Source: Staphylococcus phage AH12. From it: 64,000 bases of DNA. Under the pieces are notes generated by a model. The model did no database searches, had not been told where the DNA came from, and was given only the letters and a program-made list of their open reading frames with translations. Location of the stretch: the sequence record OR455461.1. The stretch is one strand, 5' to 3'. Of this stretch, positions 1 through 54,998 are shown one piece after another. The position numbers were made by a program, and so were the translations under genes. Every line of letters starts with the position of its first letter. The stretch's first letter is position 1.

Positions 1-412
1 ATTTAATCATATTTACATAATAAGTTTTTCCATCAATATTAAATTCAAGAGTATTATATACTTCCTTATTAGCATACATAGATATTTCAGACATTTGCTC
101 TTCAGAGAATAATGAATCATCAGAACTATAAGCCCATTCCAATAATATTTCACGTTTAACTGCTTCTAAAGAACCAATTTGTCTTTTTTGTTTTGCTAAC
201 CAATCTTCATCTTTACCTAATTCTTTATATGAATATTCTATATACATGAATTCATTATTTGAATTATCTTCCATGTATTTTTCTAATTTAGAAATTCCTT
301 CTTCTTCACCATTAATGAAATAATCATATATTTTTTCATTCCATTGAGCTGCTTCATTCATTTGTTGAAAGAAAAATTGCCCATTGTCTTCATCAAGAGT
401 ACTCAAATTTAT
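1..412 (-). CDS. terL: Large terminase subunit, exon 3 (partial; continues past the window start)
   Basis: Minus-strand frame is open from about 412 to position 1 (TLDEDNGQFFFQQMNEAAQW...). It follows intron core A and continues the T4 gp17-like alignment after the TTTP motif (T4: TTTPNGLNHFYDIW). Confidence 0.5.
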   Translation of the reverse strand, partial: MNLSTLDEDNGQFFFQQMNEAAQWNEKIYDYFINGEEEGISKLEKYMEDNSNNEFMYIEYSYKELGKDEDWLAKQKRQIGSLEAVKREILLEWAYSSDDSLFSEEQMSEISMYANKEVYNTLEFNIDGKTYYVNMIK

Positions 413-570
413 TTATTCTTTATAATTATATAAAGTTTAGACTATATCACAATAATTATAATAATTATTATCCATTATTTAGTCGTTGAACATCATTTAG
501 ATGATGCTGATTAATTTTATAATATTTCAGCAATTAAATAGAAAAGCCCAGTTAATTTTAGGCGTAGTTG
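405..570 (-). ncRNA. Group I intron core A (ORF-less) in terL; boundaries approximate
   Basis: Reverse complement carries P4/P6-like TTAATTGCTGAAAT...AATCAGCATC (502-536), R-like GTTCAACGACTAAAT (477-491) and S-like GATATAGTCT (439-448). Same family as the six other copies in the window. Confidence 0.6.
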
Positions 571-718
571 TAATTAGAAGTCCATAAGGAGTTCCGTTTC
601 TTTTAGCAATTGCAGAAGCTGTGGAGTTAGCTGGACGCATGGCCTCAAACATTGTTTGATTATGTTTAATAAATGCCCACTCATCTAGCCAGAATAATGG
701 CACAGTACCACCTCTCAT
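555..718 (-). CDS. terL: Large terminase subunit, exon 2 (Walker B and TTTP coupling motif); ends approximate
   Basis: ORF 527..718 encodes LFWLDEWAFIK...GLLITTTPK. This matches the T4 gp17 Walker B and C-motif region (MIYIDECAFIP...IIITTTPNG). It lies between intron cores B and A. The in-frame tail INWAFLFNC* probably runs into intron sequence. Confidence 0.55.
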
Positions 719-925
719 TTTTCGTTAACTATATGAATTTCATATAGATCAGACTATATCTTAACAATTTCAATGATATTAATATTTAGTCGTTGAACTA
801 CTATTTTAAGTAGATGCTGATTTATTTAATGATTTTCTCAGCAATTAATTAATTTTATAGCGAGCTAAGGTTATAAATTAATTTTTAAAAATAATTTCCA
901 TATATGCCATGGAATGATTTAACCC
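715..925 (-). ncRNA. Group I intron core B (ORF-less) in terL; boundaries approximate
   Basis: Reverse complement carries TTAATTGCTGAGAAAATCATTAAATAAATCAGCATC (813-848), GTTCAACGACTAAATAT (784-798) and GATATAGTCT (751-760). The upstream exon stops right after KAG*, and the next exon starts at MRGGTVPLFW. Confidence 0.6.
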
Positions 926-1569
926 GCTTTATTTGCTTGCTCTTTATTGTTTGGAGGACTGACTGTCTTAATAGTGTTATTATTGGATGCTAATCTAAAT
1001 TCATTTTCAGCATCTTTATCATTCTTATCACCAAAATTTGCCATCACATAATCCGGTAAACATTTTTCTTTAAATAAGTTCTTAAGACGTTTTAAATTCT
1101 CCACTGTATCAGCATAAGCTTTATGTGTAAATAACATTGTATAGTTATTACCTACTAATAACATAATCCATGAATAATAACATACTGCAGAATATGTTTT
1201 ATAGTGCTGACGAGGTAACATTATTGCAGTATCTAAGTTATGCAACATACAGAATGTCATAGCCAAGTTACCTCTATGAAGTTCATACATTACTTTTCCA
1301 CCTGGAACAGGAACTCTAATAACTTCTCTTAAATAAAACCATATATTAAGTTTAGCTTCCCTAATAACACGAGTTTTCATTTCATTATCTAAATCTTCAT
1401 CCCAAGGATCAACACCAATTAATTTCTTATCATATAGAGTTAATGGTAAACCATAATTTTGTATATTATTGTCTTTAAGTTCTTTAGCAACTTTTAAAAA
1501 GCTTATATTATTAGTCTTATAATCGTAATAAACTTTTTTCTTTAATTTTGTTATAGCCATAATCTTCAT
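919..1569 (-). CDS. terL: Large terminase subunit, exon 1 (ATPase Walker A); 3' end approximate
   Basis: 216-aa ORF contains LPRQHYKT, which resembles the terminase Walker A motif (T4 gp17 SRQLGKT). It is followed by an intron core, then exon 2 with the Walker B motif. Confidence 0.6.
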   Translation of the reverse strand: MKIMAITKLKKKVYYDYKTNNISFLKVAKELKDNNIQNYGLPLTLYDKKLIGVDPWDEDLDNEMKTRVIREAKLNIWFYLREVIRVPVPGGKVMYELHRGNLAMTFCMLHNLDTAIMLPRQHYKTYSAVCYYSWIMLLVGNNYTMLFTHKAYADTVENLKRLKNLFKEKCLPDYVMANFGDKNDKDAENEFRLASNNNTIKTVSPPNNKEQANKAG

Positions 1570-1583
1570 TCACTTCTTTCTTA

Positions 1584-2753: not shown

Positions 2754-2761
2754 ATAATTTT

Positions 2762-2809
2762 CCTTTCTTTTTATAAAATAAACCCATACACCTCAGAGAG
2801 ATGTATGGG
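2762..2809 (-). terminator. Rho-independent terminator after the major capsid gene
   Basis: Hairpin CCCATACACCTCAGAGAGATGTATGGG (2783-2809), followed on the minus strand by TTTATTTTATAAAAAG. Confidence 0.5.
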
Positions 2810-2837
2810 TATATAAATAACAAAAGTAAAGTTACTC

Positions 2838-6376: not shown

Positions 6377-6600
6377 ATGTCTAAAGATATTAAAGCTTAC
6401 ATTATTAATGAATCTAATACAACTTCTCAACCAGAAGTAGTTCAAGATAATAATAAATCAGTTAGATTCATTGCTGAGTTACAAGAAGCTGATAGACAAA
6501 ACCGTAATGGTCGTGTTTATCGTAAAGATGTTATCCAAAGTGGTTTAGATAGTCCAGTAGTACAAGAAAAATTAGCAAGAAGAACTTTTTATGGTGAGTT
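6377..6600 (+). CDS. Prohead core protease (T4 gp21-like), exon 1
   Basis: VRFIAELQEADRQNRNGRVYRKDVIQ...TFYGE aligns with T4 gp21 GIFLQAEVVNRNKRLYPKRILEK...ALGELNHP. The ORF stops right at the intron. Confidence 0.6.
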
Positions 6601-6756
6601 TTAGGTTAAAATGGCTCACGTTAAATTATATTAATTGCTGAAATCTTATTTAAAGTAATCAGCATCAACTTAATACAAGTTGTTCAACGACTAAATATAT
6701 AACCTAGATGATATAGTCTAATCTTTATTAAAATAATAAAGAATAATAATTTGCAG
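6600..6756 (+). ncRNA. Group I intron core C (protease intron 1, ORF-less); boundaries approximate
   Basis: TTAATTGCTGAAATCTTATTTAAAGTAATCAGCATC (6631-6666), a variable hairpin AACTTAATACAAGTT, GTTCAACGACTAAATAT (6682-6697) and GATATAGTCT (6709-6719). Interrupts the protease at the catalytic His codon (exon 2 resumes at GHP). Confidence 0.6.
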
Positions 6757-7013
6757 GTCATCCTTTAAGTGATGAACCTAAACGTCAAATGTATATTGAT
6801 CAACGTAATATTTCTCATATTATCACTAGAACTTGGTGGAATGGTAATAAATTAATGGGAGAAGTAGAAACAGCTCAAACATCAGCTGGTAAGGATATGA
6901 AAGGTTTAATTGGACAAAAATCTGATGTATCTTTCTCAATGCGTGGTTTTAGTAAAATAGAAAGAAAACCTAATGGTGAAGTAGAAGTTACTAAACCTTT
7001 AAGATTAATCTGT
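6757..7013 (+). CDS. Prohead core protease, exon 2
   Basis: Frame is open from 6750 (..GHPLSDEPKRQMYIDQRNISHIITRTWWNGNKLMGEVE...SFSMRGFS). Matches gp21 NHPP...MWWKGNDVYGRARV...GVSSRGLGS, including the catalytic His and Ser regions. Confidence 0.6.
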
Positions 7014-7200
7014 TAAATTATAGCAGCTTTATATAGTGATATATAATGAAAAAGAATATTAATTGCTAAGAAGTTTAATTAAGCCAATTAGCATCAACTT
7101 AATACAAGTTGTTCAACGACTAAATATATTCGCTCTTACTAAGAGTATGATATAGTCTCGTCTATATGGAAACCATATAGCTAAGATGTACGTATGACTG
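7014..7200 (+). ncRNA. Group I intron core D (protease intron 2); boundaries approximate
   Basis: TTAATTGCTAAGAAGTTTAATTAAGCCAATTAGCATC (7059-7095), GTTCAACGACTAAATAT (7111-7127), GATATAGTCT (7149-7158) and a P9-like CTATATGGAAACCATATAG. Confidence 0.55.
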
Positions 7201-7360
7201 GGTAAAAAATTATTGCTTAGTATAAATAATATTAATTGCTGGAAATCTTTATTAAGATAATCAGCATCGGATTAAATTCCGTTCAACGACTAAATATATT
7301 ACCTAATATAAATTAGGAAGATATAGTCTCGTCTATATGAAAATCATATAGTTAAGATAA
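7200..7360 (+). ncRNA. Group I intron core E (protease intron 3); boundaries approximate
   Basis: TTAATTGCTGGAAATCTTTATTAAGATAATCAGCATC (7233-7269), a variable hairpin GGATTAAATTCC, GTTCAACGACTAAATAT (7281-7297) and GATATAGTCT (7320-7329). A micro-exon between cores D and E is possible. Confidence 0.55.
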
Positions 7361-7711
7361 CGTGTAATTCCATCACATCAAGATTCTTATATCCAAAATA
7401 TAATTTCAGAGAATCATAATAATTACAATACTAGTGATTTACAAATGGTTAATGAATCAATTGATATGTTTTCTAACGGTAAAGTTACAGAATTTTCTCC
7501 TAGAGAAGTTTTAACTTATATTAAAGAAAATTCAGATAATATCAAATATATCGCTGAAGATATGGGATTTGATAAAGCTGATGAATCTAATATCATTTAT
7601 GATAAAGGATCTCAAATAGCTTCAATTAAAGAAAGTAATAAAACTATTAAAGTTTTCTTAGAAGAATCTGTTCTTAATGGACTTGATGATTTCTATAGAA
7701 ACTTTAAATAA
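7361..7711 (+). CDS. Prohead core protease, terminal exon
   Basis: Frame is open from 7361 (RVIPSHQDSYIQNII...MVNESIDMF...FYRNFK*). It directly follows intron core E, so the annotated Met at 7445 is probably internal. Confidence 0.5.
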   Translation, partial: RVIPSHQDSYIQNIISENHNNYNTSDLQMVNESIDMFSNGKVTEFSPREVLTYIKENSDNIKYIAEDMGFDKADESNIIYDKGSQIASIKESNKTIKVFLEESVLNGLDDFYRNFK

Positions 7712-14133: not shown

Positions 14134-14769
14134 ATGGATAATAAAAATATTGATATAAAATTCAATAACTTAAATAATAAAAAAGTAAAGTTAAATAAAA
14201 ATAATAAGATCAATAATGTATTAATAAAAAAAGATTCTAATAATAATACAATATTAGTAAATAAACAAAGTAAGTTTCAAATATCAAGTTTATATTTTGA
14301 AATAGAATCAGAAAATAGTTTAAAGAAATTTATTAAGAATGTAGAAGGATTAGTAAGAAGATCAAATGAATATAAAAAATATTTATCAATATTAAAAGAA
14401 GAATACAATTTGAAAAATGATATAATAATGTCAAATATTACAGAAGATATGGCAACTACAGAATATCATCACTTTCCTTTTACTCTTTATGAAATTGTTG
14501 AAATTGTTACAAATAAAGCTATTATGGAAGATGAACAGTTTACATCAATAGATATAGCTGAAAGAGTTTTAAAATTACATTTTGAGAATAAAGTAGGATT
14601 AGTATTATTAACAAAAACAAATCATCAATTAGCTCATGCAGGTAAAATAATAATTCCATTATCCTCTATATTTGGTAAAGTAAATGAATTTGTAAGTTAT
14701 TATAAAGACTATATACTTGATCATCAAATAGAACAATACAATGAACTTATAGAAGCTTCAGATATATAA
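14134..14769 (+). CDS. Hypothetical protein with weak HNH-like His/Asn motifs and an N/K-rich low-complexity N-terminus
   Basis: 211 aa with TEYHHFPF ... TNHQLAHAGK. Only weakly suggestive of an HNH nuclease. Confidence 0.35.
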   Translation: MDNKNIDIKFNNLNNKKVKLNKNNKINNVLIKKDSNNNTILVNKQSKFQISSLYFEIESENSLKKFIKNVEGLVRRSNEYKKYLSILKEEYNLKNDIIMSNITEDMATTEYHHFPFTLYEIVEIVTNKAIMEDEQFTSIDIAERVLKLHFENKVGLVLLTKTNHQLAHAGKIIIPLSSIFGKVNEFVSYYKDYILDHQIEQYNELIEASDI

Positions 14770-14852
14770 ATTTTTAATATTTATTTTAAATATATATTAT
14801 ATAAATGTAAATCATTAAAGATTTATATAATATATAAAAATTAGGAGATGAA

Positions 14853-15644: not shown

Positions 15645-15656
15645 TTAATAAAATTG

Positions 15657-15702
15657 AGGTAATGATCATTAATTTGATCATTACCTCTAATATTTTTTTT
15701 TC
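15657..15702 (+). terminator. Rho-independent terminator; member of the GAGGTAATGA hairpin family
   Basis: GAGGTAATGATCATTAATTTGATCATTACCTC followed by TAATATTTTTTTTTC. Confidence 0.6.
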
Positions 15703-17538: not shown

Positions 17539-20500
17539 TTGATTAGTATTCTTAATACTGATAGAAATAGAATTGAAAATAAAATAATATCAGACACTTT
17601 TGAAAATGTATTATCTTATGAAAAATTAGTGTATGATTTTAAAAATAAAACTGAAGTAATTAACTTAACTTTTAAAAATAAAAATTATATTCCATTAAAT
17701 TCATATATAACTGTATTAGATGAAAGTAAAAATGAATCAGAATTTGTATGTATTAAAGAAAATGATAAAGATTCAATTTTAATTCCTGCTTATACTAAAG
17801 ATTTGAATAATAAATTTACTTCTTCAACTCAAGAATTAAAAGGTTCATTGAAATCAATTATACAAACTTTACTACTTAACACAGGGTATAAAGTTGAATT
17901 TAATGATTTAGTTCAAGATGAAGAAATAATTGTTAAAGAAAGCAAAAAAACTATATATGAGAAATTATTAGATATTTTATTTGAAAAAGATTTATCTATT
18001 AGACATAAATATGATTTAGATAAAAATGAAAGAACTTTAATAATTAATAAAGGTAAAGATTTAAGAAAATCTAATCCTAAAGAAATTAATGGTAGAATTC
18101 CTGGATTTGAATTTAATATCGATAAGTCTAATATTAAAACTGCTTTAATTGTCTATGATAAAACGAGCAAAGAATCAATCACAGTTAGAGATTCTATTAA
18201 TCAAAAACGTTTCATTAAAAATAATGAATATATCTTTGATACTATTGAAGTAGAAAATAAATCTAAAGAAGAAATGGAAGATATTGCTAATTTAAAACTT
18301 AAAGAGAGTTCTTTAAATTCTATTGAGTTAAAATTAACTGGTTTAGTTTTAAGACAATGGACAAATTGTCATTATAATAAATTTATTTCTAGTCAAATTT
18401 TCATCGATTATAAAATAGTTTCTCCTGAACTTATTTCAGGATTTCAAATAAATAAATTAGAGAGAAGTTTATTTGATTATAATATAGAAAGATTTAATTT
18501 TTTTGCTAGTTATAAGTCTTCTAATGAAGTTAATTCACCTGAACTTATATCTAATTATCTTAATGAAGGTAATACAAATATTATAATTGACGAAAATTCT
18601 TATTCAGATAGTAACGATATGAAATTATTAGAAAATTTAATTAATAAGAAAATGGAATCTATTAAAGAATATATAGATAATATTACTAATAATTCAAATA
18701 GTGAAGGTTCAATAGGATTAGGTAATTTAAAATCTAATAAAGAACTCAATTTCGATGCCATTATTTCTGATTATAATATAATTAAATCTCAAAAAGATAC
18801 TGTTAATAATCAATTAAAATCAATATTTGATTCATCTTATCTTAAAGAAGATTCAATTAAAATTCAGGTTAGAGATAAAATTAAAGAAATTGATAATGGT
18901 TTTGAGAACCTTAAGTCTAGTGTGAATACTCTTAATAGAGCTGATCAAGATGAAGAGTTAATGAAAAACATTAATAAAGATTTTATAAGCTTTTATAATA
19001 TCATAAAATCTACTAAAAATATTATCGAAATTTCTAATGAAGCAATTAATTTAGAAATGAATAAACTTCAAAATGAATATTCTCATGGTATTAAAGATAC
19101 TGTATTTAATGAAATTGCTAGAGTTTTAGGTTTAAGTTACGATAGTAAAACTCAAGTTCTTAAAGGTAATATTAATTTAATGTCAGATATAAATGATATT
19201 AGAAATTCAATGGACTTAATGAGAGATAAAGTAAGTAGAATTGAAAATGATCTAAGTGATTCAGGAGTTGTTTTAAGAGGTCAATTAGATAATCTTAAAG
19301 AAAATATAGCTAATGTATTAGGTTTACCTTTAAATTCTGAATCTGGTATGATTGATGGGTCTATTGACAATCAAGATTTAATAGATAAAATTAAACAACA
19401 AATTTCTGATGTAAAAGATAATATTGAAACTTCTAAAAATAATTTAATTGAAGTTAAAAAAGATTTAGAAACTCAACAAGATGAATTACAACAAAAATCA
19501 TTAGATATAGATTCTGTAATGGCAGAAGCTAACTTAGTTAGAGAAGAATTAACTCAAGAATTGGAAACTTCTCAAAAAGAATTTGATTACTATATGGATT
19601 CTCGTGGAGACAATTTAATATTCAATGGTAATGCGGATCAAGGTGATGAATCTAATTTCCCTGGTATGTATTATGATCGTAGTGATGCATTCCAGTCAGC
19701 CGCTTCTTTTAGAATGGATGGATTTAATACAACTACTCAAACAGAACGATTAATTCCAGTTAATCCAGAAAAAACTTATAAGCTTTCAATGTTCTTAAAG
19801 AATAATAATTCATTACCTTCTTCAATAGGTCATTTAAGTTATGATAAAGATGGACAATTAATTGAATCTCAACATGTAATGGGTTCTGAAAAACCAGTTA
19901 TAACTTTAGCACAAGAATTAAGACAAGGAGATAAAGTTATATATTTCAATAGTCTAGATGGTCTTGATGATACTTATAGATTCCAATCAGCATCTTTAGA
20001 TGAAGAAGATGACACACCTAATTATGATTATGATAGAGACGGTTCTGTAGAGATAACTCAAAATGATGATATGTTGTCTATAGACGATCCAAATGCTGTT
20101 CCAGATCCTGAAGAAGAAAATATTTTATATGCTGAAGATACATCTGTAGTTTCTCCGGAAGATGCTACCGACCCTGAAGATATAGATATCCCTATGAGCG
20201 AATCTGATACCCCTACAGAAACAAACTCAGAAGTTGTTGACGAAGATGAAGCAATTAAAAATATGTCAAATAATTATAACATATCTAACGCAGGGATAGT
20301 TAATAGAAATATTAATCCTAATTTAATTGATTATAATGATAATCATTCATTAGTTATTTGGGATTTTAGAAGTAATGACGGTTATAGATATGGAGAATCT
20401 ACTTATTCTAGAAACGTATTTATGAATGCTTGGGATTATGGAGCTATTGATAGAGAAAATAACTGTATTTATCTTAATAGACCTTTTGATTTAATTAACT

Positions 20501-23500
20501 ATGATTCTGAAGATGGAGCATTTCCTGCTGGTACTAAAGTATCTGGTACATTTACTGATGATAATGTACAATGGTCTTTAATTAAAGACGAAGATGTTCC
20601 TAATGAAGATAAAGATGATGATCCAGAAGAATTTAATGGTTGGTACCATAGACAAGCATTAATAACTAAAGAAAATATTAGAGGTACTAATGGATTCTTA
20701 TACGGTACATTCTATACTACGTTATTCTTTAAAGTAAACCAATCTGAAGATTCTGATATAGTTGAATTTGAAGATGGATCTGATGAACCTAAATTCTGGA
20801 TAACTAATTTAGAAATGTATGATGTTACTGGATTAGAATCTGTTAGAAAAACTGTAATAGATACTAATGAATTAGTAGCTACTATGATGACTAAAAAAGA
20901 AATGGATGATTACCGTAAGCAAGTTATAGAAGGTTTCTCTGAAGTTAGTCAAACAGTAGATATGATTCGTCAAGAAGTAACTAAAAAGATTAATGATCTT
21001 GATGATAAAGTTATTAATGAAGTTACTTCTCGCATAGAAACTATAGCAGGACAAATAGACTTAGTTTCTGAAGCTCAAAGGGTAGATAAAGAAGAAGTAG
21101 ATAAACAACTAGGTGAACTTAAAATAGAAACTGATAAGATTTCATCTATAGTTCAAAGAGTAACTTCCACTGAAAGTAGTTTTAGTGATTTATCAACTAA
21201 AGTTGATCAACTTAATGATAGTTATTCAATCACCGCTGAGAAAGTTACCAAACAAGGTGAAAATATAACAGATCTTACAGGTCAATTAACAGTAGCTAAT
21301 GATGCTATTTCACAAGAAGTCCAAGATAGAAAATCTGCAATTAATGATACTACTGAAACTTTAACTGGTAAAATAACAACCACTGCAGATTCTATTAGAC
21401 AAGAAGTATCTAAAGATTATGCAACTAAAAGTAGTGTTAATGAAACAGTTTCATCTTTAAACACTTCAATAACTGCAGAAATTGGTAGAATTGATCAACG
21501 TGTTACTTCTGAAACTAGTACTGAATCTATTTCTGGTAAAGTTAAAATTGGTGCCAAAAATATGATTGCTGGAACAGAAAAATTTGATTTACCTTTCTTA
21601 GCTAGTATTACTAAAAAAGATAATAATGGTATTACTTATGCTAATACCAAAACAAATTTAGCTGAAGTTTCCCAAATAGTTGCAGTTAAACCTAATACAA
21701 ATTATGTATTGAGTTATGATGCTTATTCAGCAGCTGCATCTCCAGTAATTAAAACACCTATTACGAAAGCTTCAACATTAACTACTGAAGTTTCTCCTAA
21801 AGACTATTTAATTACTTTAACTGAAAGTGCTAAAACATTAACTACTACACCTACTAGATATGAATTGAAATTTAACTCTAAAACTAATAATTTCCTTAAA
21901 ATTCAGTTCACTGCGGATAATACAACCAAGGATACTTATGTAGGTCATATTCAATTAGAAGAAGGTAATGTAGCATCTACATGGGATATTTCTCCAGAAG
22001 ATTATAAGAGTAGATTTGCTAAGAATGAAACTCGTATAACTCAAACTGAGAAGGATATTACACTTAATGCTTCTTCTATTACACAATTAGATACTAAAAC
22101 TACTAACCAATATAGTGAATTAAAAGTAGAAACTGATAAGATCACTTCCATTGTTAGTAAGCAAGACGAAATGGATGGTAAAATTGCATCTAATACTTCT
22201 AGCATTCAACAGTTACCAGGTCAAATAACATCACAAGTTTCTGCTGTTGAAAGTAGAGTTAATGAGAATATTAATAATATACAAGTCGGTGCTAGAAATT
22301 TATTAGAGGATAGTAGGTCTTATAATAAAGGAATTAATGATAATTCGAATAACACTTACACGCAATTATGGTATATCAATATCAATTCAATTAAAGATAA
22401 AGTCTCTCTAGATGATAATCTTACGATTTCATTTGATTTACAGATGCAAAAAGGACTATATTTTAGTATATATGATACTCAAAAACATGGAACGATTCAA
22501 TTTGGTAAAGTCACTAAAACTAATTTAGGAACTAATAAATTTAGATATTCTGCAACTATGAAATTAACTTCCGCTACTAAAAATAGTGATGATTGGTATA
22601 TTTATGCATATAATAATAATGCTACTGATGATAAATTTACTATTGAAAATATTAAGATAGAAAAAGGTAATAAAGCTACTGACTGGTCTCCAGCTCCTGA
22701 AGATATTAATTCACAAATCAATAATATACAAGTAGGGTCTAGAAATTTATTAAAAGATTCTAAAATAAATAAAACTACTAGTATTTATGAAATTAATGAT
22801 TTCTATCTAACAGAAAATATAGAAGAAGGAACCGAAGTCACATTCACTATGAAAGCTGATTTAGGTTCAGATAGAAAATACTTTTCTTTGTATAATTCCG
22901 GTGGTTTGGTTATGCAACAAGTTAATTTATATCCTTCTGATAAAAATAGTAGAGGTATATTCTCTAGAACATTTAAATGGAAAAAAACGAGAGATGGTGG
23001 GACTGTTGCATCCAATACTTTCTTAAGAGTATATCATATGGAAAAAACAAATACGAGTAATTCTACTATTTATTGGGCTAAACTTGAATATGGAAATAAA
23101 TCCACTGACTGGACTCCAGCACCAGAAGATATTGATAATAAAATAGATAATAGTGTAACTTCATTAACTACTTCTATCAATCAATTACCAGATCAAATAT
23201 TATTAGAAGCTAAGAAAACCACTATAACTGAAATTGGTAAAATTGAGGTTGGTGGTAGAAATTTATTAAATGATAGTAAACCATCTTCAAGTTCTTATTG
23301 GAGATTTACTGAATCTAGTAAAAGTAGTGATAATATTAATCATACTCAAATTAATGGTGAGTTACCTATTGTAAATAAACAGAATTCATGGAAACAGTGG
23401 CAAATATATAGTAATGATAAATTTAGTGATAAATATGTAGATAATTTGAATAAATTAGATGCCGGTTCCTTATATACACTATCAGTAGATATTAAAAAAA

Positions 23501-26169
23501 TAGACATTAATTCTACAGGTAATGCCCAAATAATGATTAGATTTGACTCTCCATCAGGAGCAACTAATAAACTTAGTAGAGATATAGATATAGAAAGTGA
23601 ATTAACTAGTAGCTGGAAGAGATTTTCCATAACTGATACAATAACATCTGAAGATTTAGCATCAAATACACTTGTAAGAATTATATTATCATATGCAGGT
23701 GGTAGTAAAACTAATAATGGTTCTATTTCTTTTAAAAATGTTAAATTAGAAAAAGGTAATAAAGCTACTGACTGGACACCGTCTACAGAAGATATAGAGA
23801 CTTCCATATCAACTGTATCATCTAAAATAGATCAACGAGCTGATTCAATTGAATTAAGCGTAAATAAAATTAATGATACGCTTAATGCAGACAATATATT
23901 AATAAATTCAGACTTGAGTAATGGATGGGAAGGCTGGACTCAAAGTGATACAGCTACTTCTAAAAGCTTAAATTACGTTGAAGAAGTGTCTAATGCATAT
24001 TGGATCTTTACTAATTCTGGAACTGAAGTTGCTGTTACTAATAAAGATCTTAAAGATCAAGATTATTTATCCTTAACTTCAAAATCAGAAGGTTGGAAAC
24101 AATGGCAAGTATCAGACATAGATTATAAAGATGGTAATGGTAGTCCTAAGATGTCTAAAATAACTGCTGGAACATATACAATGAGTATGCAAGTTAGAAA
24201 AGATGCTGGAAGTACTGGTATACTTAAACCTTTTATCAGAATTAATAAAGGATCTTCAACTACTGATCCATTAGTTTATGAAATGGATGTAGATAGTACT
24301 TTAGATACTGAATGGAAATGGATTACTGCTAAAGCTACAATAACTGCAGCTCAATTAACTGATAAAACACAAATTCGTTTTATTATAGTATATCAAGGTT
24401 CAGGAACAGGAACCGTTTATGCTAGAAATATTCGTCTAGATAAAGCGGACAATCCACAACCACCTAGATTTAGTATCCCTGAAGACAATGACTTCTCTAT
24501 AAATACAGATGGTAATATGGCAATTTCACCTAGATATAGAGACGATTTTATATCTAGAGGAGTTTATAAACGTACAGTAATTAATCTATCAAAACCTTTT
24601 GTAAAAGGTAAAACTTATAAATTTGCTTTTGATTATAGTATATTAACAGGAAGTAATTCTGCTAGTAAAATATCAATATTTCCTTATAGATATCCTTGGG
24701 GTGGAAATTTCCCAAATGAAGCTAGCTCTGCTAATAGAGTTGATTATTCTGTTAATATTAATTCTAGAAATATTATTGAATTTACTGTTAATGAAGAAGG
24801 ATGTAATCAATTATTATTATATGGTGCACCTGCTGGAAGCTCAGATAACTCAGGAATTAATGCATTATTCGAAAATATTAAACTGGTTGAAAAAGTTGAT
24901 GGAAATGAAGATATGACATTTAATCCAAGTGCTGTTAAAAGTGTTTTTAGATATAAGCATAATAACTTCGGCTCAAGTTGGCCTTCCATAATATCTAACT
25001 ATATATCTATTGGTAGAGGTAGTGACTTTAGTGTAGGTGATGAAATTACAATGTCAGCTTATATTTATGTACCTTCAAGTGCTAAATATAAAATGAAAGG
25101 TTCAATATATTTTGAAACTGCCACATATGAAAATGTAAATCAAAATGGAAATCCTATGTTTGGTAGGTATTCTTCTACTCAAAATCCTATACAATATGAT
25201 ACTTGGGTAAGATACAGTTTTACTGCAAAAATTCCTAGAACATCATCCAATGGTATTACTAACTATGTAAGAGTTCTATTAAGATATAATAATGGAACTG
25301 TGAGTAATGATGTTGATGATGATAATGTGTTTTATTATGCTTTACCTAAATTGGAGAAAGGTAATAAAACAGTAACACAATGGACTCCATCTACTTTAGA
25401 TAGATTTAGTACAGAATCAATGTCAAGTAAAATTGCAATGAATAGTGAAGCAATTAAAATGATTTCTAGAAATATTGATTTAAATACAGATAAAGTTAGA
25501 ATTTATAATGATAAAGGTAACTTAAGTTTCACTAATGATGTTCTGAGAATATCTAAAACTGCGTTAGATGCAGATAATTATGTAGAGATAAATTCAGCTG
25601 GATTAAACATTAGAAAAAATGGCGTAGACACTATGGTCGATGGAATGTTTAAAGGTGAGACTAACGTTCAAGCTACATTTCCTTCAGTAAGAAGTGCAAA
25701 CCCTCCAGGTTCAGGTTCATATGACGGTCTTTACCATATAGCAGAAGATCATGTTACTGGTGCATATTATATAGATGCAGCAATGTATAAATATAGTGCC
25801 GATAAAAAATATCTAGTTGAGAATGGTGGATCTCAGAATGCATTAGCTGGAACATATTCTTACTTTCATGATAAGAGATATTTAGTTGTAAGTTTAAGTT
25901 ATACTACTACTAAAAATGCAAACTTACACGTAACTGTTGCTGCAGGTGTTGGTTGGAAAACAGATTCAAAAACTGATCTACACTTTGATAAAAAATATAC
26001 AACTTCAAGCAATGGAGTCATTGTTGAATATATAGATATAGGAAAACCTACAAATATGTATAGAACACTAGTTATTGAATTAGGTGTAACAGGGACTACT
26101 ACTAAGGGTGAAGGCGGTTTCGTTCAATTTAAGAGACTTGCACTTAGCAATTTCAATTCAATATCATAA
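17539..26169 (+). CDS. Giant fibre or virion structural protein (2876 aa); TTG start
   Basis: The N-terminal half is coiled-coil rich. The C-terminal half has at least 6 repeated about 150-aa modules, each starting with (I/V)QVG.RNLL.DS and ending with LE+GNKATDW.P.PEDI (for example 21960, 22660, 23085, 23745, 25355). RBS GGAAGGA upstream of the TTG. Confidence 0.7.
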   Translation: MISILNTDRNRIENKIISDTFENVLSYEKLVYDFKNKTEVINLTFKNKNYIPLNSYITVLDESKNESEFVCIKENDKDSILIPAYTKDLNNKFTSSTQELKGSLKSIIQTLLLNTGYKVEFNDLVQDEEIIVKESKKTIYEKLLDILFEKDLSIRHKYDLDKNERTLIINKGKDLRKSNPKEINGRIPGFEFNIDKSNIKTALIVYDKTSKESITVRDSINQKRFIKNNEYIFDTIEVENKSKEEMEDIANLKLKESSLNSIELKLTGLVLRQWTNCHYNKFISSQIFIDYKIVSPELISGFQINKLERSLFDYNIERFNFFASYKSSNEVNSPELISNYLNEGNTNIIIDENSYSDSNDMKLLENLINKKMESIKEYIDNITNNSNSEGSIGLGNLKSNKELNFDAIISDYNIIKSQKDTVNNQLKSIFDSSYLKEDSIKIQVRDKIKEIDNGFENLKSSVNTLNRADQDEELMKNINKDFISFYNIIKSTKNIIEISNEAINLEMNKLQNEYSHGIKDTVFNEIARVLGLSYDSKTQVLKGNINLMSDINDIRNSMDLMRDKVSRIENDLSDSGVVLRGQLDNLKENIANVLGLPLNSESGMIDGSIDNQDLIDKIKQQISDVKDNIETSKNNLIEVKKDLETQQDELQQKSLDIDSVMAEANLVREELTQELETSQKEFDYYMDSRGDNLIFNGNADQGDESNFPGMYYDRSDAFQSAASFRMDGFNTTTQTERLIPVNPEKTYKLSMFLKNNNSLPSSIGHLSYDKDGQLIESQHVMGSEKPVITLAQELRQGDKVIYFNSLDGLDDTYRFQSASLDEEDDTPNYDYDRDGSVEITQNDDMLSIDDPNAVPDPEEENILYAEDTSVVSPEDATDPEDIDIPMSESDTPTETNSEVVDEDEAIKNMSNNYNISNAGIVNRNINPNLIDYNDNHSLVIWDFRSNDGYRYGESTYSRNVFMNAWDYGAIDRENNCIYLNRPFDLINYDSEDGAFPAGTKVSGTFTDDNVQWSLIKDEDVPNEDKDDDPEEFNGWYHRQALITKENIRGTNGFLYGTFYTTLFFKVNQSEDSDIVEFEDGSDEPKFWITNLEMYDVTGLESVRKTVIDTNELVATMMTKKEMDDYRKQVIEGFSEVSQTVDMIRQEVTKKINDLDDKVINEVTSRIETIAGQIDLVSEAQRVDKEEVDKQLGELKIETDKISSIVQRVTSTESSFSDLSTKVDQLNDSYSITAEKVTKQGENITDLTGQLTVANDAISQEVQDRKSAINDTTETLTGKITTTADSIRQEVSKDYATKSSVNETVSSLNTSITAEIGRIDQRVTSETSTESISGKVKIGAKNMIAGTEKFDLPFLASITKKDNNGITYANTKTNLAEVSQIVAVKPNTNYVLSYDAYSAAASPVIKTPITKASTLTTEVSPKDYLITLTESAKTLTTTPTRYELKFNSKTNNFLKIQFTADNTTKDTYVGHIQLEEGNVASTWDISPEDYKSRFAKNETRITQTEKDITLNASSITQLDTKTTNQYSELKVETDKITSIVSKQDEMDGKIASNTSSIQQLPGQITSQVSAVESRVNENINNIQVGARNLLEDSRSYNKGINDNSNNTYTQLWYININSIKDKVSLDDNLTISFDLQMQKGLYFSIYDTQKHGTIQFGKVTKTNLGTNKFRYSATMKLTSATKNSDDWYIYAYNNNATDDKFTIENIKIEKGNKATDWSPAPEDINSQINNIQVGSRNLLKDSKINKTTSIYEINDFYLTENIEEGTEVTFTMKADLGSDRKYFSLYNSGGLVMQQVNLYPSDKNSRGIFSRTFKWKKTRDGGTVASNTFLRVYHMEKTNTSNSTIYWAKLEYGNKSTDWTPAPEDIDNKIDNSVTSLTTSINQLPDQILLEAKKTTITEIGKIEVGGRNLLNDSKPSSSSYWRFTESSKSSDNINHTQINGELPIVNKQNSWKQWQIYSNDKFSDKYVDNLNKLDAGSLYTLSVDIKKIDINSTGNAQIMIRFDSPSGATNKLSRDIDIESELTSSWKRFSITDTITSEDLASNTLVRIILSYAGGSKTNNGSISFKNVKLEKGNKATDWTPSTEDIETSISTVSSKIDQRADSIELSVNKINDTLNADNILINSDLSNGWEGWTQSDTATSKSLNYVEEVSNAYWIFTNSGTEVAVTNKDLKDQDYLSLTSKSEGWKQWQVSDIDYKDGNGSPKMSKITAGTYTMSMQVRKDAGSTGILKPFIRINKGSSTTDPLVYEMDVDSTLDTEWKWITAKATITAAQLTDKTQIRFIIVYQGSGTGTVYARNIRLDKADNPQPPRFSIPEDNDFSINTDGNMAISPRYRDDFISRGVYKRTVINLSKPFVKGKTYKFAFDYSILTGSNSASKISIFPYRYPWGGNFPNEASSANRVDYSVNINSRNIIEFTVNEEGCNQLLLYGAPAGSSDNSGINALFENIKLVEKVDGNEDMTFNPSAVKSVFRYKHNNFGSSWPSIISNYISIGRGSDFSVGDEITMSAYIYVPSSAKYKMKGSIYFETATYENVNQNGNPMFGRYSSTQNPIQYDTWVRYSFTAKIPRTSSNGITNYVRVLLRYNNGTVSNDVDDDNVFYYALPKLEKGNKTVTQWTPSTLDRFSTESMSSKIAMNSEAIKMISRNIDLNTDKVRIYNDKGNLSFTNDVLRISKTALDADNYVEINSAGLNIRKNGVDTMVDGMFKGETNVQATFPSVRSANPPGSGSYDGLYHIAEDHVTGAYYIDAAMYKYSADKKYLVENGGSQNALAGTYSYFHDKRYLVVSLSYTTTKNANLHVTVAAGVGWKTDSKTDLHFDKKYTTSSNGVIVEYIDIGKPTNMYRTLVIELGVTGTTTKGEGGFVQFKRLALSNFNSIS

Positions 26170-26219
26170 AAATATTTAAACATTCTCTTATAATATAAAA
26201 TGAAGGAGAATGTTTAAAT

Positions 26220-41188: not shown

Positions 41189-41799
41189 TTTTTAATTTCT
41201 CCTTTAATATTTAAGTTAAAGTAATCCTGAAATTCTTTTATATTATTATCAATTTCTTTATATTCTCTTGATTCTAATTTACTACTTTCATATTTGAGAA
41301 ATTCTCCATAAGTAAGTAATCTATTAGTATCAATACTGTTCTTCCAATGTTTTCTTTTCTTTCTTTCTTCAAGTTTTACTATTTTAGTAGCATCTATAAA
41401 TGATTCTCCTAGTAAAATTCCTGTTAAGTTTTTTATATTATAATACTCTATATACCAGTTTTTTTCATTTTTAAAATTATTAAAAGCTTCTTTAAAAATC
41501 TCATTATTCCCATTTAATTCAATATACCATAGAGAATAATATTTACCCTTAATTTTATATGATTGATTTAAAGCTCTATATTCTTTCATAATATTATTAT
41601 TAAAGAATATTATAGAGATAATTATCATTGGTATAAATATTAATAAAGATAATAATGCTAATTTAGTATTAATTGACGATATAAAAATAAATAATGTTAT
41701 CAGTACTGAAAATAAAATTGCATTAAATAAAAAAGGAAATATTGTTGAATTTCCATTTTTATAGATGCACCAATCAAATAGGTTTATTTTATTTTTCAT
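41185..41799 (-). CDS. Membrane protein, tandem paralogue 3 of 3
   Basis: 204 aa. NLFDWCIYKNG, then TM segments, then conserved ALNQSYKIKGKYYSLWYI and NRLLTYGEFLKYE. Confidence 0.5.
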   Translation of the reverse strand: MKNKINLFDWCIYKNGNSTIFPFLFNAILFSVLITLFIFISSINTKLALLSLLIFIPMIIISIIFFNNNIMKEYRALNQSYKIKGKYYSLWYIELNGNNEIFKEAFNNFKNEKNWYIEYYNIKNLTGILLGESFIDATKIVKLEERKKRKHWKNSIDTNRLLTYGEFLKYESSKLESREYKEIDNNIKEFQDYFNLNIKGEIKK

Positions 41800-41806
41800 T
41801 TTATTA

Positions 41807-42424
41807 TCATTCCCCTTTAGTGTTTAAATTATAGTAATCTTGAAATTCTTTTATTTCTCGTTCCATATCATTTAATTTTTCAATTTTAAGTTTATTCTTT
41901 TTATATTTAAGGAATTCTCTATAAGTGAGTAATCTATTAGTATCAATATTGTTCTTCCAATGTTCTCTATTTTCTCTGACTGCATATTCCACTATTTTAG
42001 TATCTTTTATAAAGAATCCTTCTAGTAAAATTCCTGATAAGTTTTTTATATTATGATCCTCTATATACCAGTTTTTTTCATTTTTAAAATTATTAAAAGC
42101 TTCTTTAAATAACTCATTATTTTCATTTAAACTAATATACCATAGAGAATAATATTTACCTTTGATTTTATATGATTGATTTAAAGCTGTATATTCTTCC
42201 GAATTTTCATCATTTATACACTTAATCATTTTACGTGATATTATAAATATTATTAAAGATATTAAAGGTGAAAATAGAATTACACTTATATTAAAACTAA
42301 ATATAGAAATTATAGGTATAACTATTGCTAAAGATGTTAATAAAATATCTAAGTATTCGACTATTTTGAAAATCTCATTTCTTGTATATAAATTCCAATC
42401 AAATCTATTTACTGTATTTTTCAT
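41807..42424 (-). CDS. Membrane protein, tandem paralogue 2 of 3
   Basis: 205 aa. NRFDWNLY...ALNQSYKIKGKYYSLWYI...NRLLTYREFLKYKKNKL. Confidence 0.5.
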   Translation of the reverse strand: MKNTVNRFDWNLYTRNEIFKIVEYLDILLTSLAIVIPIISIFSFNISVILFSPLISLIIFIISRKMIKCINDENSEEYTALNQSYKIKGKYYSLWYISLNENNELFKEAFNNFKNEKNWYIEDHNIKNLSGILLEGFFIKDTKIVEYAVRENREHWKNNIDTNRLLTYREFLKYKKNKLKIEKLNDMEREIKEFQDYYNLNTKGE

Positions 42425-42974
42425 TTAGTGTATCACCTCTTATTTTTAAATTAAGATGTTCTTTAAATTCTTTTATATACTTATCCAACTTAATATTTTC
42501 TTCTAATTTTAACATATTCTTTCTATATTTAATAAATTCTCTATAAGTTAGTAATCTATTTTTACCTGTATTATTTTTCCAGTTATATCTATCCAATTCC
42601 CTTAAATTAAATTTACTAATATTGAAAATAATTTTATTCAATTCGTGAAGTTCTTTTTCAGTTTCAATAACTCCTGTCATGTTAAAAAACCATCTAGAGT
42701 AATAATTTCCTTTTATTTCATAAGAAAAATTTATAAATTTGTATTCTGACATAATCTCATCATTAAAATATTTCAAGTATATAAATGTAGAAATTATTAA
42801 TATAGGGATAAAAATTGATAAAGATAATAAAAATAGATTGATACTATATAGTAAAGATAAAAAGGATATTAAAATTGACAAAATAAATATTGATGTGAAA
42901 CATCTGAAGGGGATTATTGCATCTTTACCTTTTCTATAAATATGCCAATCAAATAGATTCACTGTTTTTCTCAT
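42405..42974 (-). CDS. Membrane protein, tandem paralogue 1 of 3 (start at the internal Met)
   Basis: MRKTVNLFDWHIYRKG, then TM segments, then NRLLTYREFIKYRKNML. The longer 42405..43019 ORF overlaps the upstream gene. Confidence 0.45.
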   Translation of the reverse strand: MRKTVNLFDWHIYRKGKDAIIPFRCFTSIFILSILISFLSLLYSINLFLLSLSIFIPILIISTFIYLKYFNDEIMSEYKFINFSYEIKGNYYSRWFFNMTGVIETEKELHELNKIIFNISKFNLRELDRYNWKNNTGKNRLLTYREFIKYRKNMLKLEENIKLDKYIKEFKEHLNLKIRGDTLNEKYSK

Positions 42975-42981
42975 TTTATTA

Positions 42982-43176
42982 TCACTCACCTTTCTTTTTT
43001 CTATAAAATGTTCTTCCATGCATTGTTTCGTAGTATTTAATAATATTAGTAATGCATCCCCTACTCACATTAAATCTTTTTGCAAATTGATCTAATGTTT
43101 TCCAATTATTATGAACTATATATTGCATTATTTCTTTTCTTTCTTTAGGTGTGAATTTATAATTTCTTCCAGACAT
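42982..43176 (-). CDS. Small HTH DNA-binding protein
   Basis: 64 aa. TLDQFAKRFNVSRGCITNIIKY is helix-turn-helix-like. Confidence 0.4.
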   Translation of the reverse strand: MSGRNYKFTPKERKEIMQYIVHNNWKTLDQFAKRFNVSRGCITNIIKYYETMHGRTFYRKKKGE

Positions 43177-43191
43177 AATTAAACTTCTCCT

Positions 43192-43698
43192 TTAATAAGC
43201 AATATATAATTTCTTAGCCTGTTTATTACTGATATTGTATTTATCTTTGAGTCTATTAACTTCATCCATTAATAAATTAATCGTATCCATATCAAGATCA
43301 TGGCCCTTCTTATTTACTTTCTTAAAATATTCAAATTCAATAACAGATTTAATAATTTCACAAGCTCTTTCATCATCAGCTTTCTTAATCATGAAAGTCT
43401 CTAACATATCTTGAATGTCTTCATTAAGCGTATACTTGATTTCTTTTTCATTATTAACTTTAAAAATTAATTTTATTTTCAATGAAGGATCATAGAATTT
43501 TTCTATTTCTTTAAATTCAGCTGTATTATTTTCAAACTCCCATCCAGATAATAGATTATCTTTTAAAAATCTTAAATTGATTACTAGATCTTGATTTAAC
43601 ACTTTTAACATCGCCTCTTCCATATATTTTGTTTTCATTAATTCGTTATTAATAATATCTTGGTTAATTTCAATATCTTTATTTTTTAACATATCCAT
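43192..43698 (-). CDS. Hypothetical protein
   Basis: 168-aa ORF. Confidence 0.45.
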   Translation of the reverse strand: MDMLKNKDIEINQDIINNELMKTKYMEEAMLKVLNQDLVINLRFLKDNLLSGWEFENNTAEFKEIEKFYDPSLKIKLIFKVNNEKEIKYTLNEDIQDMLETFMIKKADDERACEIIKSVIEFEYFKKVNKKGHDLDMDTINLLMDEVNRLKDKYNISNKQAKKLYIAY

Positions 43699-49514: not shown

Positions 49515-49545
49515 ACCTTTATTTTTATTGTTGGATCATAGAAAA

Positions 49546-50639: not shown

Positions 50640-50658
50640 AATTTAAAACACATTCTTT

Positions 50659-51276: not shown

Positions 51277-51290
51277 AATTCATTTCATCC

Positions 51291-51818: not shown

Positions 51819-51890
51819 TTTAATAATTTAATATAGGTAATGAGCGTTATAATATTTGCTCATTACCTATTTATAATATATACTTATTTC

Positions 51891-52952: not shown

Positions 52953-52966
52953 TTCTTTCTTTTATA

Positions 52967-53611: not shown

Positions 53612-54187
53612 TCAATTTAATAGTCTATCAATAAAAATATTATTGTTAAATGTATAAGCACCAGTATTATCTAATTTTTTATAATTAAAATTACTTCTAA
53701 TATATTTTCTAATTCTACTTTTAATGACATTTTCTAAGAAATTAGTTGTATTATATATTTCTGAAATTAATTCGTTTCTCCACTTATTAATTCCATCGGT
53801 TATATCATAAGTGCCAGTTATTCCTAATGATTCATTTTCATATTTATGTCCTAAATTTCCTCTATTAACGCTATATAAAGTATTTAAAACCATATTAAGT
53901 CTTTCAGCAAAAGTGTTACATAAAAATCTAGATATTTCATAATGTGTTGTAGTTAAAGTTACACTTACAACTTTATTAATATCATTGTTAACAATCTTTT
54001 TAATATGTTTTTTAGAATTATCTTTAAAACTGTTAGATTCTTTTATAATATCATTAATAATATCTTGATTAATATAATCCTGATCAATCTTAAGTAATTC
54101 TTTATAAATTTCTTCATAAAATATATCTAACGATTTTTCAGCCATATCGATTAAATTCTTTTCATTATTCTTTTTATATTTTATCAA
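53612..54187 (-). CDS. Hypothetical protein
   Basis: 191-aa ORF. Confidence 0.4.
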   Translation of the reverse strand: MIKYKKNNEKNLIDMAEKSLDIFYEEIYKELLKIDQDYINQDIINDIIKESNSFKDNSKKHIKKIVNNDINKVVSVTLTTTHYEISRFLCNTFAERLNMVLNTLYSVNRGNLGHKYENESLGITGTYDITDGINKWRNELISEIYNTTNFLENVIKSRIRKYIRSNFNYKKLDNTGAYTFNNNIFIDRLLN

Positions 54188-54254
54188 TTCTATAAACCCT
54201 CCATATTTATAAAGTATAATAAGAATGGATAATCATAAAGATTATCCATTAAAA

Positions 54255-54455
54255 TTACTTATTCACTTTGATTGCATAATCATAAAGTATCAAAGCAGTA
54301 TTAAAAGCTATATTATCTAATTTATTAATTCCCCTTTTAATTCTACCAATTTTAGCTCTACTTATTCCAGTACATTTTTCAATTTCATAATTACTAATCT
54401 CTTTATTATTTAATAGTTTTTCTATCTCATATTTAACTTCTTCAGCTTTATTCAC
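54255..54455 (-). CDS. Small XRE-like HTH protein (GTG start); overlaps the end of the beta-prime exon 2 in another frame
   Basis: ISNYEIEKCTGISRAKIGRIKRG is a classic HTH_3-like helix-turn-helix. Confidence 0.4.
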   Translation of the reverse strand: MNKAEEVKYEIEKLLNNKEISNYEIEKCTGISRAKIGRIKRGINKLDNIAFNTALILYDYAIKVNK

Positions 54456-54657
54456 TAGCTTTAATACCTACATTTTTTGATTTAGGGTTATTTAGTAAAT
54501 AAACAGCTATTTGTGAGTCTTTATTAAGCGAGTAAGTTCTATTAAATAATCCATCATTATATGAAATTAATTGATTTACTGGATCTTGGACTTTTAACTG
54601 TTCGTATTGTTCTTCTGAAAATAGTGCTATGATGTTTAAAGTGTCACCATCATACGT
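54448..54657 (-). CDS. RNA polymerase beta-prime N-terminal fragment, exon 2 (catalytic DxDGD motif)
   Basis: Minus-strand frame (N)YDGDTLNIIALFSEEQYEQLKVQDPVNQLISYNDG...VGIKASE* matches E. coli [39 protein letters not shown]. Downstream of two intron cores. Confidence 0.6.
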   Translation of the reverse strand, partial: TYDGDTLNIIALFSEEQYEQLKVQDPVNQLISYNDGLFNRTYSLNKDSQIAVYLLNNPKSKNVGIKASE

Positions 54658-54830
54658 TTATCTTAATCTATATAAATATTATCATATAGACGAGACTATA
54701 TCATTACCATTTAAGGTAGAATATATTTAGTCGTTGAACAAATTATATTAATTTGATGCTGATTAATTTAATAATCTTCTCAGCAATTAATATTCTTTTC
54801 TATAAATCTCTCAATTTAAAGCGACTATTA
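54658..54830 (-). ncRNA. Group I intron core F (second of two in the beta-prime gene); boundaries approximate
   Basis: Reverse complement carries TTAATTGCTGAGAAGATTATTAAATTAATCAGCATC (54754-54790), GTTCAACGACTAAATAT (54725-54739) and GATATAGTCT (54693-54702), plus a P9-like CGTCTATATGATAATATTTATATAG. Confidence 0.55.
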
Positions 54831-54998
54831 TTTAATCGGCCATTTGTATTAACTTCATAGAGATTTTTCTATAAAGATTAGACTATATCAAACTCATATT
54901 AGTGAGTGAATTTATTTAGTCGTTGAACAATCATCTTGATTGATGCTGATTAATTTAATAATCTTCTCAGCAATTAAAATTCTTTTGACATTATATTA
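54830..54998 (-). ncRNA. Group I intron core G (first of two in the beta-prime gene); boundaries approximate
   Basis: Its P4-P6 segment is identical to that of core F (54942-54977). GTTCAACGACTAAAT (54914-54928) and GATATAGTCT (54880-54889). Confidence 0.55.

Follow-up and report, generated by a model that had tools for sequence, protein, structure and literature searches.

Three group I introns without an open reading frame (ORF) were reportedly described by Landthaler and Shub in 1999 in a single gene, orf142, of the Staphylococcus phage Twort. Genes of the phages MarsHill, Madawaska, Machias and AR9 are likewise disrupted by introns, with exons inferred from protein alignments (Korn et al., bioRxiv 10.1101/2020.12.14.422802). 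The Jug huge gut phages contain a mean of 18.5 introns per genome, ORF-less, of about 200 nucleotides (nt) and located in terL, polymerase and nrd genes; their splicing was confirmed by metatranscriptomics, and crAss-like phages also have multiple introns (PMC12880540). Genes split by introns are already known from the MarsHill clade, as are swarms of small group I introns from other huge phages. Here we describe seven elements in a 64-kb window (64,000 nt, the whole stretch of DNA analysed) of Staphylococcus phage AH12, sequence record OR455461.1; what is said below to be absent from this phage refers to the window. The seven elements are group I introns related to those of Twort orf142 (perhaps IA2-like), 154–206 nt in length and without a gene of their own.

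The G+C content of the window is 19–31%, and sequence matching places the phage among the Staphylococcus jumbo phages of the AR9/PBS1-like MarsHill clade. Its nearest relatives are Machias (~97% identical) and vB_StaM_PB50 (PB50, ~95%), and UFV_DC4, S6, PALS_2, MarsHill, Madawaska, SA1 and LY01 showed 79–86% identity across the three regions compared. The large terminase gene (TerL) is interrupted by two introns, the prohead protease gene by three and the non-virion RNA polymerase beta' gene by two. UFV_DC4 has uninterrupted alleles of all three genes, and the splice sites were set by DNA comparison with it. Scores named R1 refer to a covariance model built from the seven window cores. The exons and introns are as follows.

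TerL exon 1: 922..1569, minus strand; from the spliced translation compared with UFV_DC4.
TerL_i1: 921..716, minus strand; intron of 206 nt whose P1 loop has a long extension and whose P8 is weak.
TerL exon 2: 560..715, minus strand; 156 nt between the two introns, aligning to UFV_DC4 TerL nt 643–797.
TerL_i2: 559..404, minus strand; intron of 156 nt, no P2.
TerL exon 3: 2–403, minus strand; runs off the window.
Protease exon 1 (prohead scaffold/protease): 6377..6599, plus strand; from the UFV_DC4 comparison.
Prot_i1: 6600..6753, plus strand; intron of 154 nt, no P2 and practically no P8.
Protease exon 2: 6754..7013, plus strand; from the UFV_DC4 comparison.
Prot_i2: 7014..7192, plus strand; intron of 179 nt with P2, R1 150.4 bits.
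Protease micro-exon TATGACTGGGT: 7193..7203, plus strand; 11 nt coding Y-D-W and part of V.
Prot_i3: 7204..7362, plus strand; intron of 159 nt, no P2, R1 135 bits.
Protease exon 4: 7363..7711, plus strand; from the UFV_DC4 comparison.
Beta' exon 1: 55023..56120, minus strand; from the UFV_DC4 comparison.
RpoC_i1: 55022..54841, minus strand; intron of 182 nt with P2, R1 124.1 bits, P1 GGGU/GCCU.
Beta' micro-exon GCCGAT: 54835..54840, minus strand; 6 nt coding Ala-Asp, with the first Asp of the catalytic ADYDGD.
RpoC_i2: 54834..54655, minus strand; intron of 180 nt with P2, R1 122.4 bits.
Beta' exon 3: 54448..54654, minus strand; starts with TATGATGGTGAC (YDGD).

At all seven introns the 5' exon ends in T (U in RNA) and the intron ends in G (omega G), the latter being seen also at 18 of 18 determinable Machias siblings. 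The last 4–7 exon bases pair with a guide sequence beginning with G to form P1, with U.G at the splice site in each of the seven; P1 starts at intron nt 7–15, and at nt 57 in TerL_i1. TerL_i1 is inserted after TerL nt 642 (GCGGGT↓AGAGGT, the arrow marking the splice site; R1 123.4 bits) with a P1 of 7 base pairs (bp), AGCGGGU/GCUCGCU, and TerL_i2 after nt 797 (ACGCCT↓AGTACT; R1 72.6 bits; P1 GCCU/GGGC). Prot_i1 (R1 110.3 bits; P1 GUGAGU/GCUCAC) is 94% identical in LY01.

The joined exons gave proteins collinear with those of UFV_DC4 in single gapless blocks. The spliced protease has 280 aa and is 92.9% identical to UFV_DC4, the spliced beta' protein has 436 aa with 88.8% identity, and the visible part of the spliced TerL is 82.5% identical. 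The catalytic ADYDGD of beta' was restored, the product reading GMGADYDGDTLN; the listed ORF 54999..56120 is only beta' exon 1 reading into the intron, where it stops. Two micro-exons are part of this restoration. The 11-nt exon of the protease is required to restore ...LICYDWVVIPSH..., and the exons add up to 843 nt, which is as long as the intron-free gene; the 6-nt exon of beta' matches UFV_DC4 beta' nt 1099–1104 (GCTGAC). The P1 of Prot_i3 (ACUGGGU/GCUUAGU) lies wholly inside the 11-nt micro-exon and that of RpoC_i2 (CGAU/GUCG) inside the 6-nt one; since the whole P1 partner of the downstream intron is within the micro-exon, each intron could be removed independently. Exon skipping is a risk in such tandem arrangements, as recognised from the work on Twort orf142, and in the present genes its cost would be two catalytic residues or a frameshift.

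The core anatomy of group I introns was found in these elements, namely P3-P4-P6-P7-P8-P9, the P, Q, R and S elements and the P3/P7 pseudoknot, with exceptions in P8. RNAalifold on a plain MAFFT alignment recovered P4, P6, P7 and P9 de novo, with compensatory changes in 8 of 24 pairs; P3, P8 and P2 were added by eye, and the hand-curated structure includes the P7 pseudoknot. Compensatory changes were found in P3, P4, P6, P8 and P9. P3 is a 6-bp helix that differs in nearly all copies, P2 is present in three copies only, and P7 is invariant within the window set, as expected of the guanosine-binding helix. When the seven window copies were aligned to R1, 95.2% of the cells were paired, compared with 78% after shuffling and 30–40% when the partners were slid by 1–3 columns, and 20 of 39 pairs had changed on both sides. 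For 83 R1 hits (48 distinct; from the window, Machias and IMG/VR huge phages) the values were 92.6% paired, 60% shuffled and 34–47% slid, with 31 of 34 pairs changed on both sides. Such R1-aligned pairing counts are fitted to the model and therefore favour the structure; the slid controls and RNAalifold agree with them.

The Rfam model Intron_gpI (RF00028) aligned end to end with the three protease copies in a 1.4-kb sub-search, giving 45.5 bits for Prot_i2 (E=4.8e-10), 41.6 bits for Prot_i3 (E=7.3e-9) and 32.6 bits for Prot_i1 (E=3.5e-6). A place in subgroup IA2 is suggested indirectly, by similarity to the orf142-type introns of Twortvirinae, which a published paper calls IA2. A lariat-capping ribozyme (GIR1) has no P1 pairing with a 5' exon and forms part of a larger twin-ribozyme intron, in which an endonuclease ORF follows it. 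This reading, suggested for small phage elements in PMC12880540, was rejected here, each element having P1 and omega G and being flanked by coding exons.

A preliminary description of this DNA had proposed one family of seven ORF-less introns with a conserved core and co-varying peripheral helices, and as group I introns they are supported in each of these points. The core R element GTTCAACGACTAAAT was found exactly seven times. R1 matched exactly the same seven elements in 64 kb, with 72.6–150.4 bits and the next match at 22 bits; the count of seven is therefore complete for the window. All seven are too short (154–206 nt) for a gene. The variable hairpin placed between Q and R is P6, with AACTTAATACAAGTT at 6667 and 7096, CGGATTAAATTCCG at 7268, TACTTAAAATAGTA at 799–812 (minus strand) and CAATCATCTTGATTG at 54928, and its compensatory changes were seen; the P9 hairpins lie at 7162–7180 and 7333–7351, with a third variant at 729–747. 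All quoted strings were present where implied, and dinucleotide shuffles would produce about zero of each. The co-variation is seen as compensatory pairs in the alignment, RNAalifold and the pairing counts. The span needs correction: it was given as 400–54998 and is in fact 404–55022, so that the 5' end of the last intron was missed by 24 nt. Two refinements also apply. The core is near-identical as described, yet it is partly a generic group I core, the R...S part alone occurring in more than 120 viral contigs, giant-virus bins included; and introns in these genes were already on record for the clade.

Copies of the family are unevenly distributed among the relatives. The whole Machias genome, assembled from fetched pieces, gave 31 R1 hits, corresponding to about 30 family members in 13 genes, namely RNA polymerase subunits, both DNA polymerase genes, NrdE, GyrB, TerL, protease and two virion-protein genes; zero family copies were found in the ~245 kb of UFV_DC4. 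By blastn, 31 places were matched in LY01, 16 in PB50, 10 in Madawaska and 8 in MarsHill. The ORF-less members are 142–212 nt long, three of them without P8 (Prot_i1 and those in the Machias 115342–115495 and 243445–243591 regions), and in Machias introns often follow one another in tandem, with short exons of 16, 18 and 44 nt between them. The protease introns of Machias are 100% identical to those of the window. Only three protease exons are given in the Machias record, without the 11-nt micro-exon (locus L001 7381–8715), and its beta' CDS is a truncated ORF of 373 aa stopping at 2822 in the first intron (locus L005 1701–3372), so that the annotated beta' lacks the two introns and the catalytic ADYDGD region. 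The PB50 record likewise gives the truncated beta' ORF as the gene and the fragments as separate CDSs.

Over 29 curated insertion sites (7 from the window and 22 from Machias), positions -4 to -1 were G in 16, G in 22, G in 20 or A in 8, and T in 28. The consensus GGRT↓ is the complement of the guide, and little preference was found in the 3' exon. Several unrelated genes have identical 6–8-mers ending at the splice site. The pattern fits equally well with guide-directed reverse splicing and with a P1-survival filter in essential genes. Two junctions of Machias were observed to be irregular. In its 115342 region (virion RNA polymerase beta', DFDGD) the sibling intron appears after C (GATGGC↓) with the guide ACCATC, and the C opposite the guide A would be a C.A pair instead of the U.G wobble. 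At the Machias TerL intron near nt 722 the U rule and the reading frame could not both be satisfied, and this junction was left out of the curated sites.

Several members of the family in relatives carry nuclease genes. The core of the Machias/PB50 TerL intron is split by a 336-aa 'homing endonuclease', the PB50 beta' intron encodes, ahead of an intact core, a 504-aa treble-clef zinc-finger protein, and a DNA-polymerase intron in relatives contains an I-HmuI-like HNH gene. Three Machias copies lie directly 5' of TnpB genes (Pfam OrfB_IS605 with a Cas12f1-like TNB domain), in the layout of an IStron, in the following places.

L130: ribozyme 15771–15914, minus strand; TnpB gene 14506–15699, minus strand.
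L132: ribozyme 42065–42213; TnpB gene 42285–43487.
L133: ribozyme 14438–14580; TnpB gene 14650–15855.

The host genes of these three are a virion protein gene, gene 207/209 and the 5' part of gyrB, and the 5' exons end in GGAT↓ or AGAT↓. As a separate observation, Machias L134 8687–10167, compared with window 58631–59006, contains an insert of ~1.5 kb that carries a fourth TnpB 'transposase' (CPT_Machias_283), and its place is filled by an unrelated 375 bp in the window.

The TerL gene differs between close relatives. Its insertion sites are 642 and 797 in the window and 627, 656 and ~722 in Machias/PB50, with 797 shared by Machias only; there Machias has a 1524-nt ORF-containing group I intron that starts with nearly the same P1 sequence as TerL_i2. 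Compared with Machias/PB50, TerL exon 3 is 94–97% identical and exon 1 ~89%, and the 156-nt exon 2 only 70–82%. This drop between the introns, with intron positions differing from relatives that are otherwise 95–97% identical, suggests a recombination or co-conversion tract, a recent replacement. In the protease gene we looked for higher conservation of introns than of exons, which would point to recent transfer, and did not see it: introns are 83–95% and exons 91–96% identical to LY01, and all parts ~100% to Machias.

We consider that group I splicing identity, with a DNA-level origin helped by nucleases, is very probably the best explanation of these data. The transcribed intron would fold into the P3–P9 catalytic core, the last 4–7 exon bases would pair with the internal guide sequence as P1 with U.G at the cleavage site, and two guanosine-initiated transesterifications ending at the terminal G would excise it, by which the reading frames of large terminase, prohead protease and non-virion RNA polymerase beta' would be restored. 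Intron identity and exon restoration come from the sequence and its comparison with relatives, and catalysis is inferred from them. The copies most likely entered as DNA, by double-strand-break repair or recombination in mixed infections, possibly driven by the nucleases of sibling introns of the same family (treble-clef or 'homing endonuclease' ORFs, I-HmuI-like HNH, TnpB); the ORFs may have been lost later, or ORF-less copies may have been converted in trans. In essential genes only insertions with a guide-matching 5' exon (GGRT↓) would splice and survive. In the AH12 genome the introns would now be mainly vertically inherited and phenotypically silent passengers, which may also destroy recognition sites of competitors' intron endonucleases. 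DNA-level mobility is supported by the 0 copies of UFV_DC4 against ~30 of Machias, the differing TerL positions, the exon identity dip and the ORF-bearing siblings; the origin and the possible protective role are inferred.

A number of results weigh against this explanation. The three Rfam scores (n=3, 32.6–45.5 bits) are all under the RF00028 gathering score of 50, and Rfam on the whole window gave 0 matches both at the gathering score and by E-value, the latter owing to filters that are too stringent for a sequence of this length. The gathering score is a curation threshold and no biological feature, and the low scores fit the loss of P2, the P5 extension, P8 and P9.x together with a G+C of 17–30%. 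Prot_i1 has no P8, with only CCTAGAT between P3' and J8/7 and P8 absent in the model alignment, and P8 of TerL_i1 is weak; these two introns may therefore need a protein or self-splice poorly. Splicing is predicted from the sequence alone. Core relatedness was weakly correlated with target similarity (Mantel r=0.15, p=0.012), and the core and the 5' guide/P2 module seem to have been reshuffled with respect to each other. Four endonucleases of the relatives gave no tblastn match in the window, and a Pfam search of seven window ORFs, mostly from parts differing from Machias, revealed DNA ligase and no nuclease. The window introns, at 154–206 nt, contain no homing endonuclease gene such as defines a mobile intron, and the combination of a group I ribozyme with tnpA/tnpB that defines an IStron was found only at the three Machias siblings. 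The Machias reverse transcriptase and TnpB also gave no tblastn match in the window. The preliminary description had taken the spread of ORF-less copies to imply trans-acting homing, reverse splicing or recombination. Help in trans is reasonable and in part supported, Machias and PB50 siblings carrying endonuclease or TnpB genes; the free-standing endonuclease that it sought as mobiliser was not found in the 64-kb window by tblastn and Pfam.

Among the other explanations, the best surviving, which we hold possible and still rather unlikely, is that the copies are kept as protection, ORF-less introns in or near endonuclease sites making an essential gene uncleavable in co-infection. An intron endonuclease is described as mediating competition between co-infecting jumbo phages (PMC11620839). 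The endonuclease-bearing introns of relatives are located only 5–15 nt from the window sites: in beta' at ~1112 in PB50, with the window and Machias introns at 1098 and 1104; in the protease gene at nt 218 in MarsHill, an unrelated LAGLIDADG intron 5 nt from Prot_i1 (223); and in TerL at 656 in Machias/PB50, compared with 642 in the window. However, protection would depend on putative cleavage sites of these enzymes and a presumed fitness effect, and clustering at conserved catalytic motifs is likewise predicted by plain selfish homing.

Less likely, in our judgement, is that the introns multiplied within the genome by reverse splicing into guide-matching mRNAs (4–7 bases), followed by copying with the phage reverse transcriptase and recombination. 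What sites in unrelated genes have in common is exactly the stretch pairing with the guide. Protease and NrdE share ACTGGGT↓, the DNA polymerase exonuclease gene and virion RNA polymerase beta share GTTGGGT↓, and TerL and virion RNA polymerase beta' share TGAGAGT↓; CCGAT↓ is found at four sites, and in the shared-site pairs similarity largely ends at the splice site. Identical 5'-exon k-mers exceeded the column-shuffled expectation (25 against 13.5 for k=5, P=0.013; 4 against 1.08 for k=7, P=0.027). The ~30 Machias copies are all in the sense strand of expressed genes, and an RVT_1 reverse transcriptase is encoded by the MarsHill clade. On the other hand, this excess of k-mers is modest, and the P1 match is also predicted when a filter for splicing competence acts on any DNA-level insertion. 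In one sister pair it is the 3' exon that is common to both (GGT↓ACTCAAG), and T↓TATGAYTGG is found at both Prot_i2 and RpoC_i2; this is more like recognition of a DNA site. The presence of the reverse transcriptase does not follow intron load, since the intron-free UFV_DC4 encodes it too (53% identity), and we rejected it as a marker of that load. According to a published review, the reverse-splicing pathway has no direct experimental support. On these grounds DNA-level entry with ORF loss is favoured, and reverse splicing is a minority reading.

A bolder version, which we regard as doubtful and mention as speculation, joins two claims: that the lineage burst (~30 copies in Machias against 0 in UFV_DC4) may represent the first family of group I introns in protein genes steered by its own guide, through reverse splicing into GGRT↓ and reverse transcription, and that no natural self-splicing group I ribozyme may be smaller than its P8-less members of 142–154 nt in essential genes. 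A literature search for P8-less or smallest natural group I introns gave nothing usable. Finally, that the elements are unspliced dispersed DNA repeats in genes truly split into separately translated pieces is highly improbable, for although jumbo phages naturally have RNA polymerase subunits encoded in pieces by several genes (bioRxiv 10.1101/2020.12.14.422802) and the fragments appear as separate or truncated CDSs in GenBank records of relatives, the 6-nt and 11-nt micro-exons are untranslatable alone and yet exactly restore a conserved protein, downstream exons have no correctly placed start codons, every copy has the U/G boundaries and P1 pairing, the covariation keeps RNA pairing and not DNA sequence, and the insertions split catalytic motifs such as ADYDGD.

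Other features of the window were also recorded. A 180-bp segment at 54268–54447, missing from Machias, directly follows the beta' stop codon; it contains a small ORF of ~60 aa (...EISNYEIEKCTGISRAKIGRIKRGINKL...) which by eye resembles a helix-turn-helix protein. The stretches 22308–26580 and 41368–42915 have no megablast match in Machias; the first lies in the 3' part of a tail-fibre-like ORF of 2876 aa (17539..26169), and the second comprises two ORFs of ~205 aa each with no significant Pfam match. An NAD-dependent DNA ligase gene (62672–64000, minus strand) is cut by the right edge of the window. An extra intron was considered in this gene, which looked N-terminally truncated, and was rejected as the ORF runs off the window. 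No tRNA or tmRNA was found by scanning the window.

The points of interest in this family are the extreme reduction of the ribozyme, the micro-exons of 6 and 11 nt in catalytic motifs, the range from 0 to ~30 copies and the annotation errors. The family forms a compact natural series of minimal group I ribozymes (142–212 nt, some without P2 or P8), which must work because they are located in essential genes. One and the same chassis occurs without any gene, with nuclease genes of three kinds and with TnpB, and sister phages with 0 to ~30 copies make a convenient system for questions of ORF-less intron spread and gene shielding. As Rfam finds nothing at the gathering score or in whole-window scans, routine annotation would miss these introns, and the public records contain a truncated beta', a protease lacking its 11-nt exon and an unreconstructed terminase. 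Current concepts are unchanged by the finding.

Compared with the set of Korn et al. (bioRxiv 10.1101/2020.12.14.422802), the window belongs to the same clade and the same genes are affected (RNA polymerase subunits, prohead protease and large terminase); that work did not describe the RNAs or reconstruct TerL, whereas here the sites are fixed by intron-free DNA alleles. The introns of the Twort orf142 type are alike in that several related ORF-less introns stand in a row in a single essential gene of a Staphylococcus myovirus, with R and S elements and the P7–P9 sequence shared (blastn 41 nt at 88–90%), and three tandem introns of V1SA20 (Twortvirinae) are recognised by R1 with 35–43 bits. 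They differ in size and score, the Twort-type introns having ~225–290 nt and 73–90 Rfam bits, above the gathering score, and the window introns 154–206 nt and 33–45 bits, below it. The exons between the V1SA20 introns are ~70–76 nt and those in the window 6 and 11 nt, and the Twort-type hosts are Herelleviridae while the window is from an AR9-like jumbo phage.

The Jug phages have other hosts and belong to another lineage, and their elements are suggested by the authors to be 'group I-like ribozymes', whereas the window introns have the full P1/omega-G anatomy with exact exon restoration. Up to 9 R1-like introns in ~14 kb were found in IMG/VR huge-phage contigs (230–400 kb; L014, L046, L036, L065 and L029), so dense arrays of such introns are widespread beyond Staphylococcus phages. 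An IStron is a group I ribozyme fused to an IS200/IS605 TnpB element (PMC4227781, PMC10690162); the three Machias loci are alike in having the ribozyme 5' of TnpB, and the seven window copies differ in being without any ORF. Tandem self-splicing introns separated by exons of 1–18 nt are also known in fungal mitochondria (PMC12308204). These fungal introns are organellar and mostly ORF-containing, whereas the introns of the window belong to a bacterial virus and are far smaller modules.

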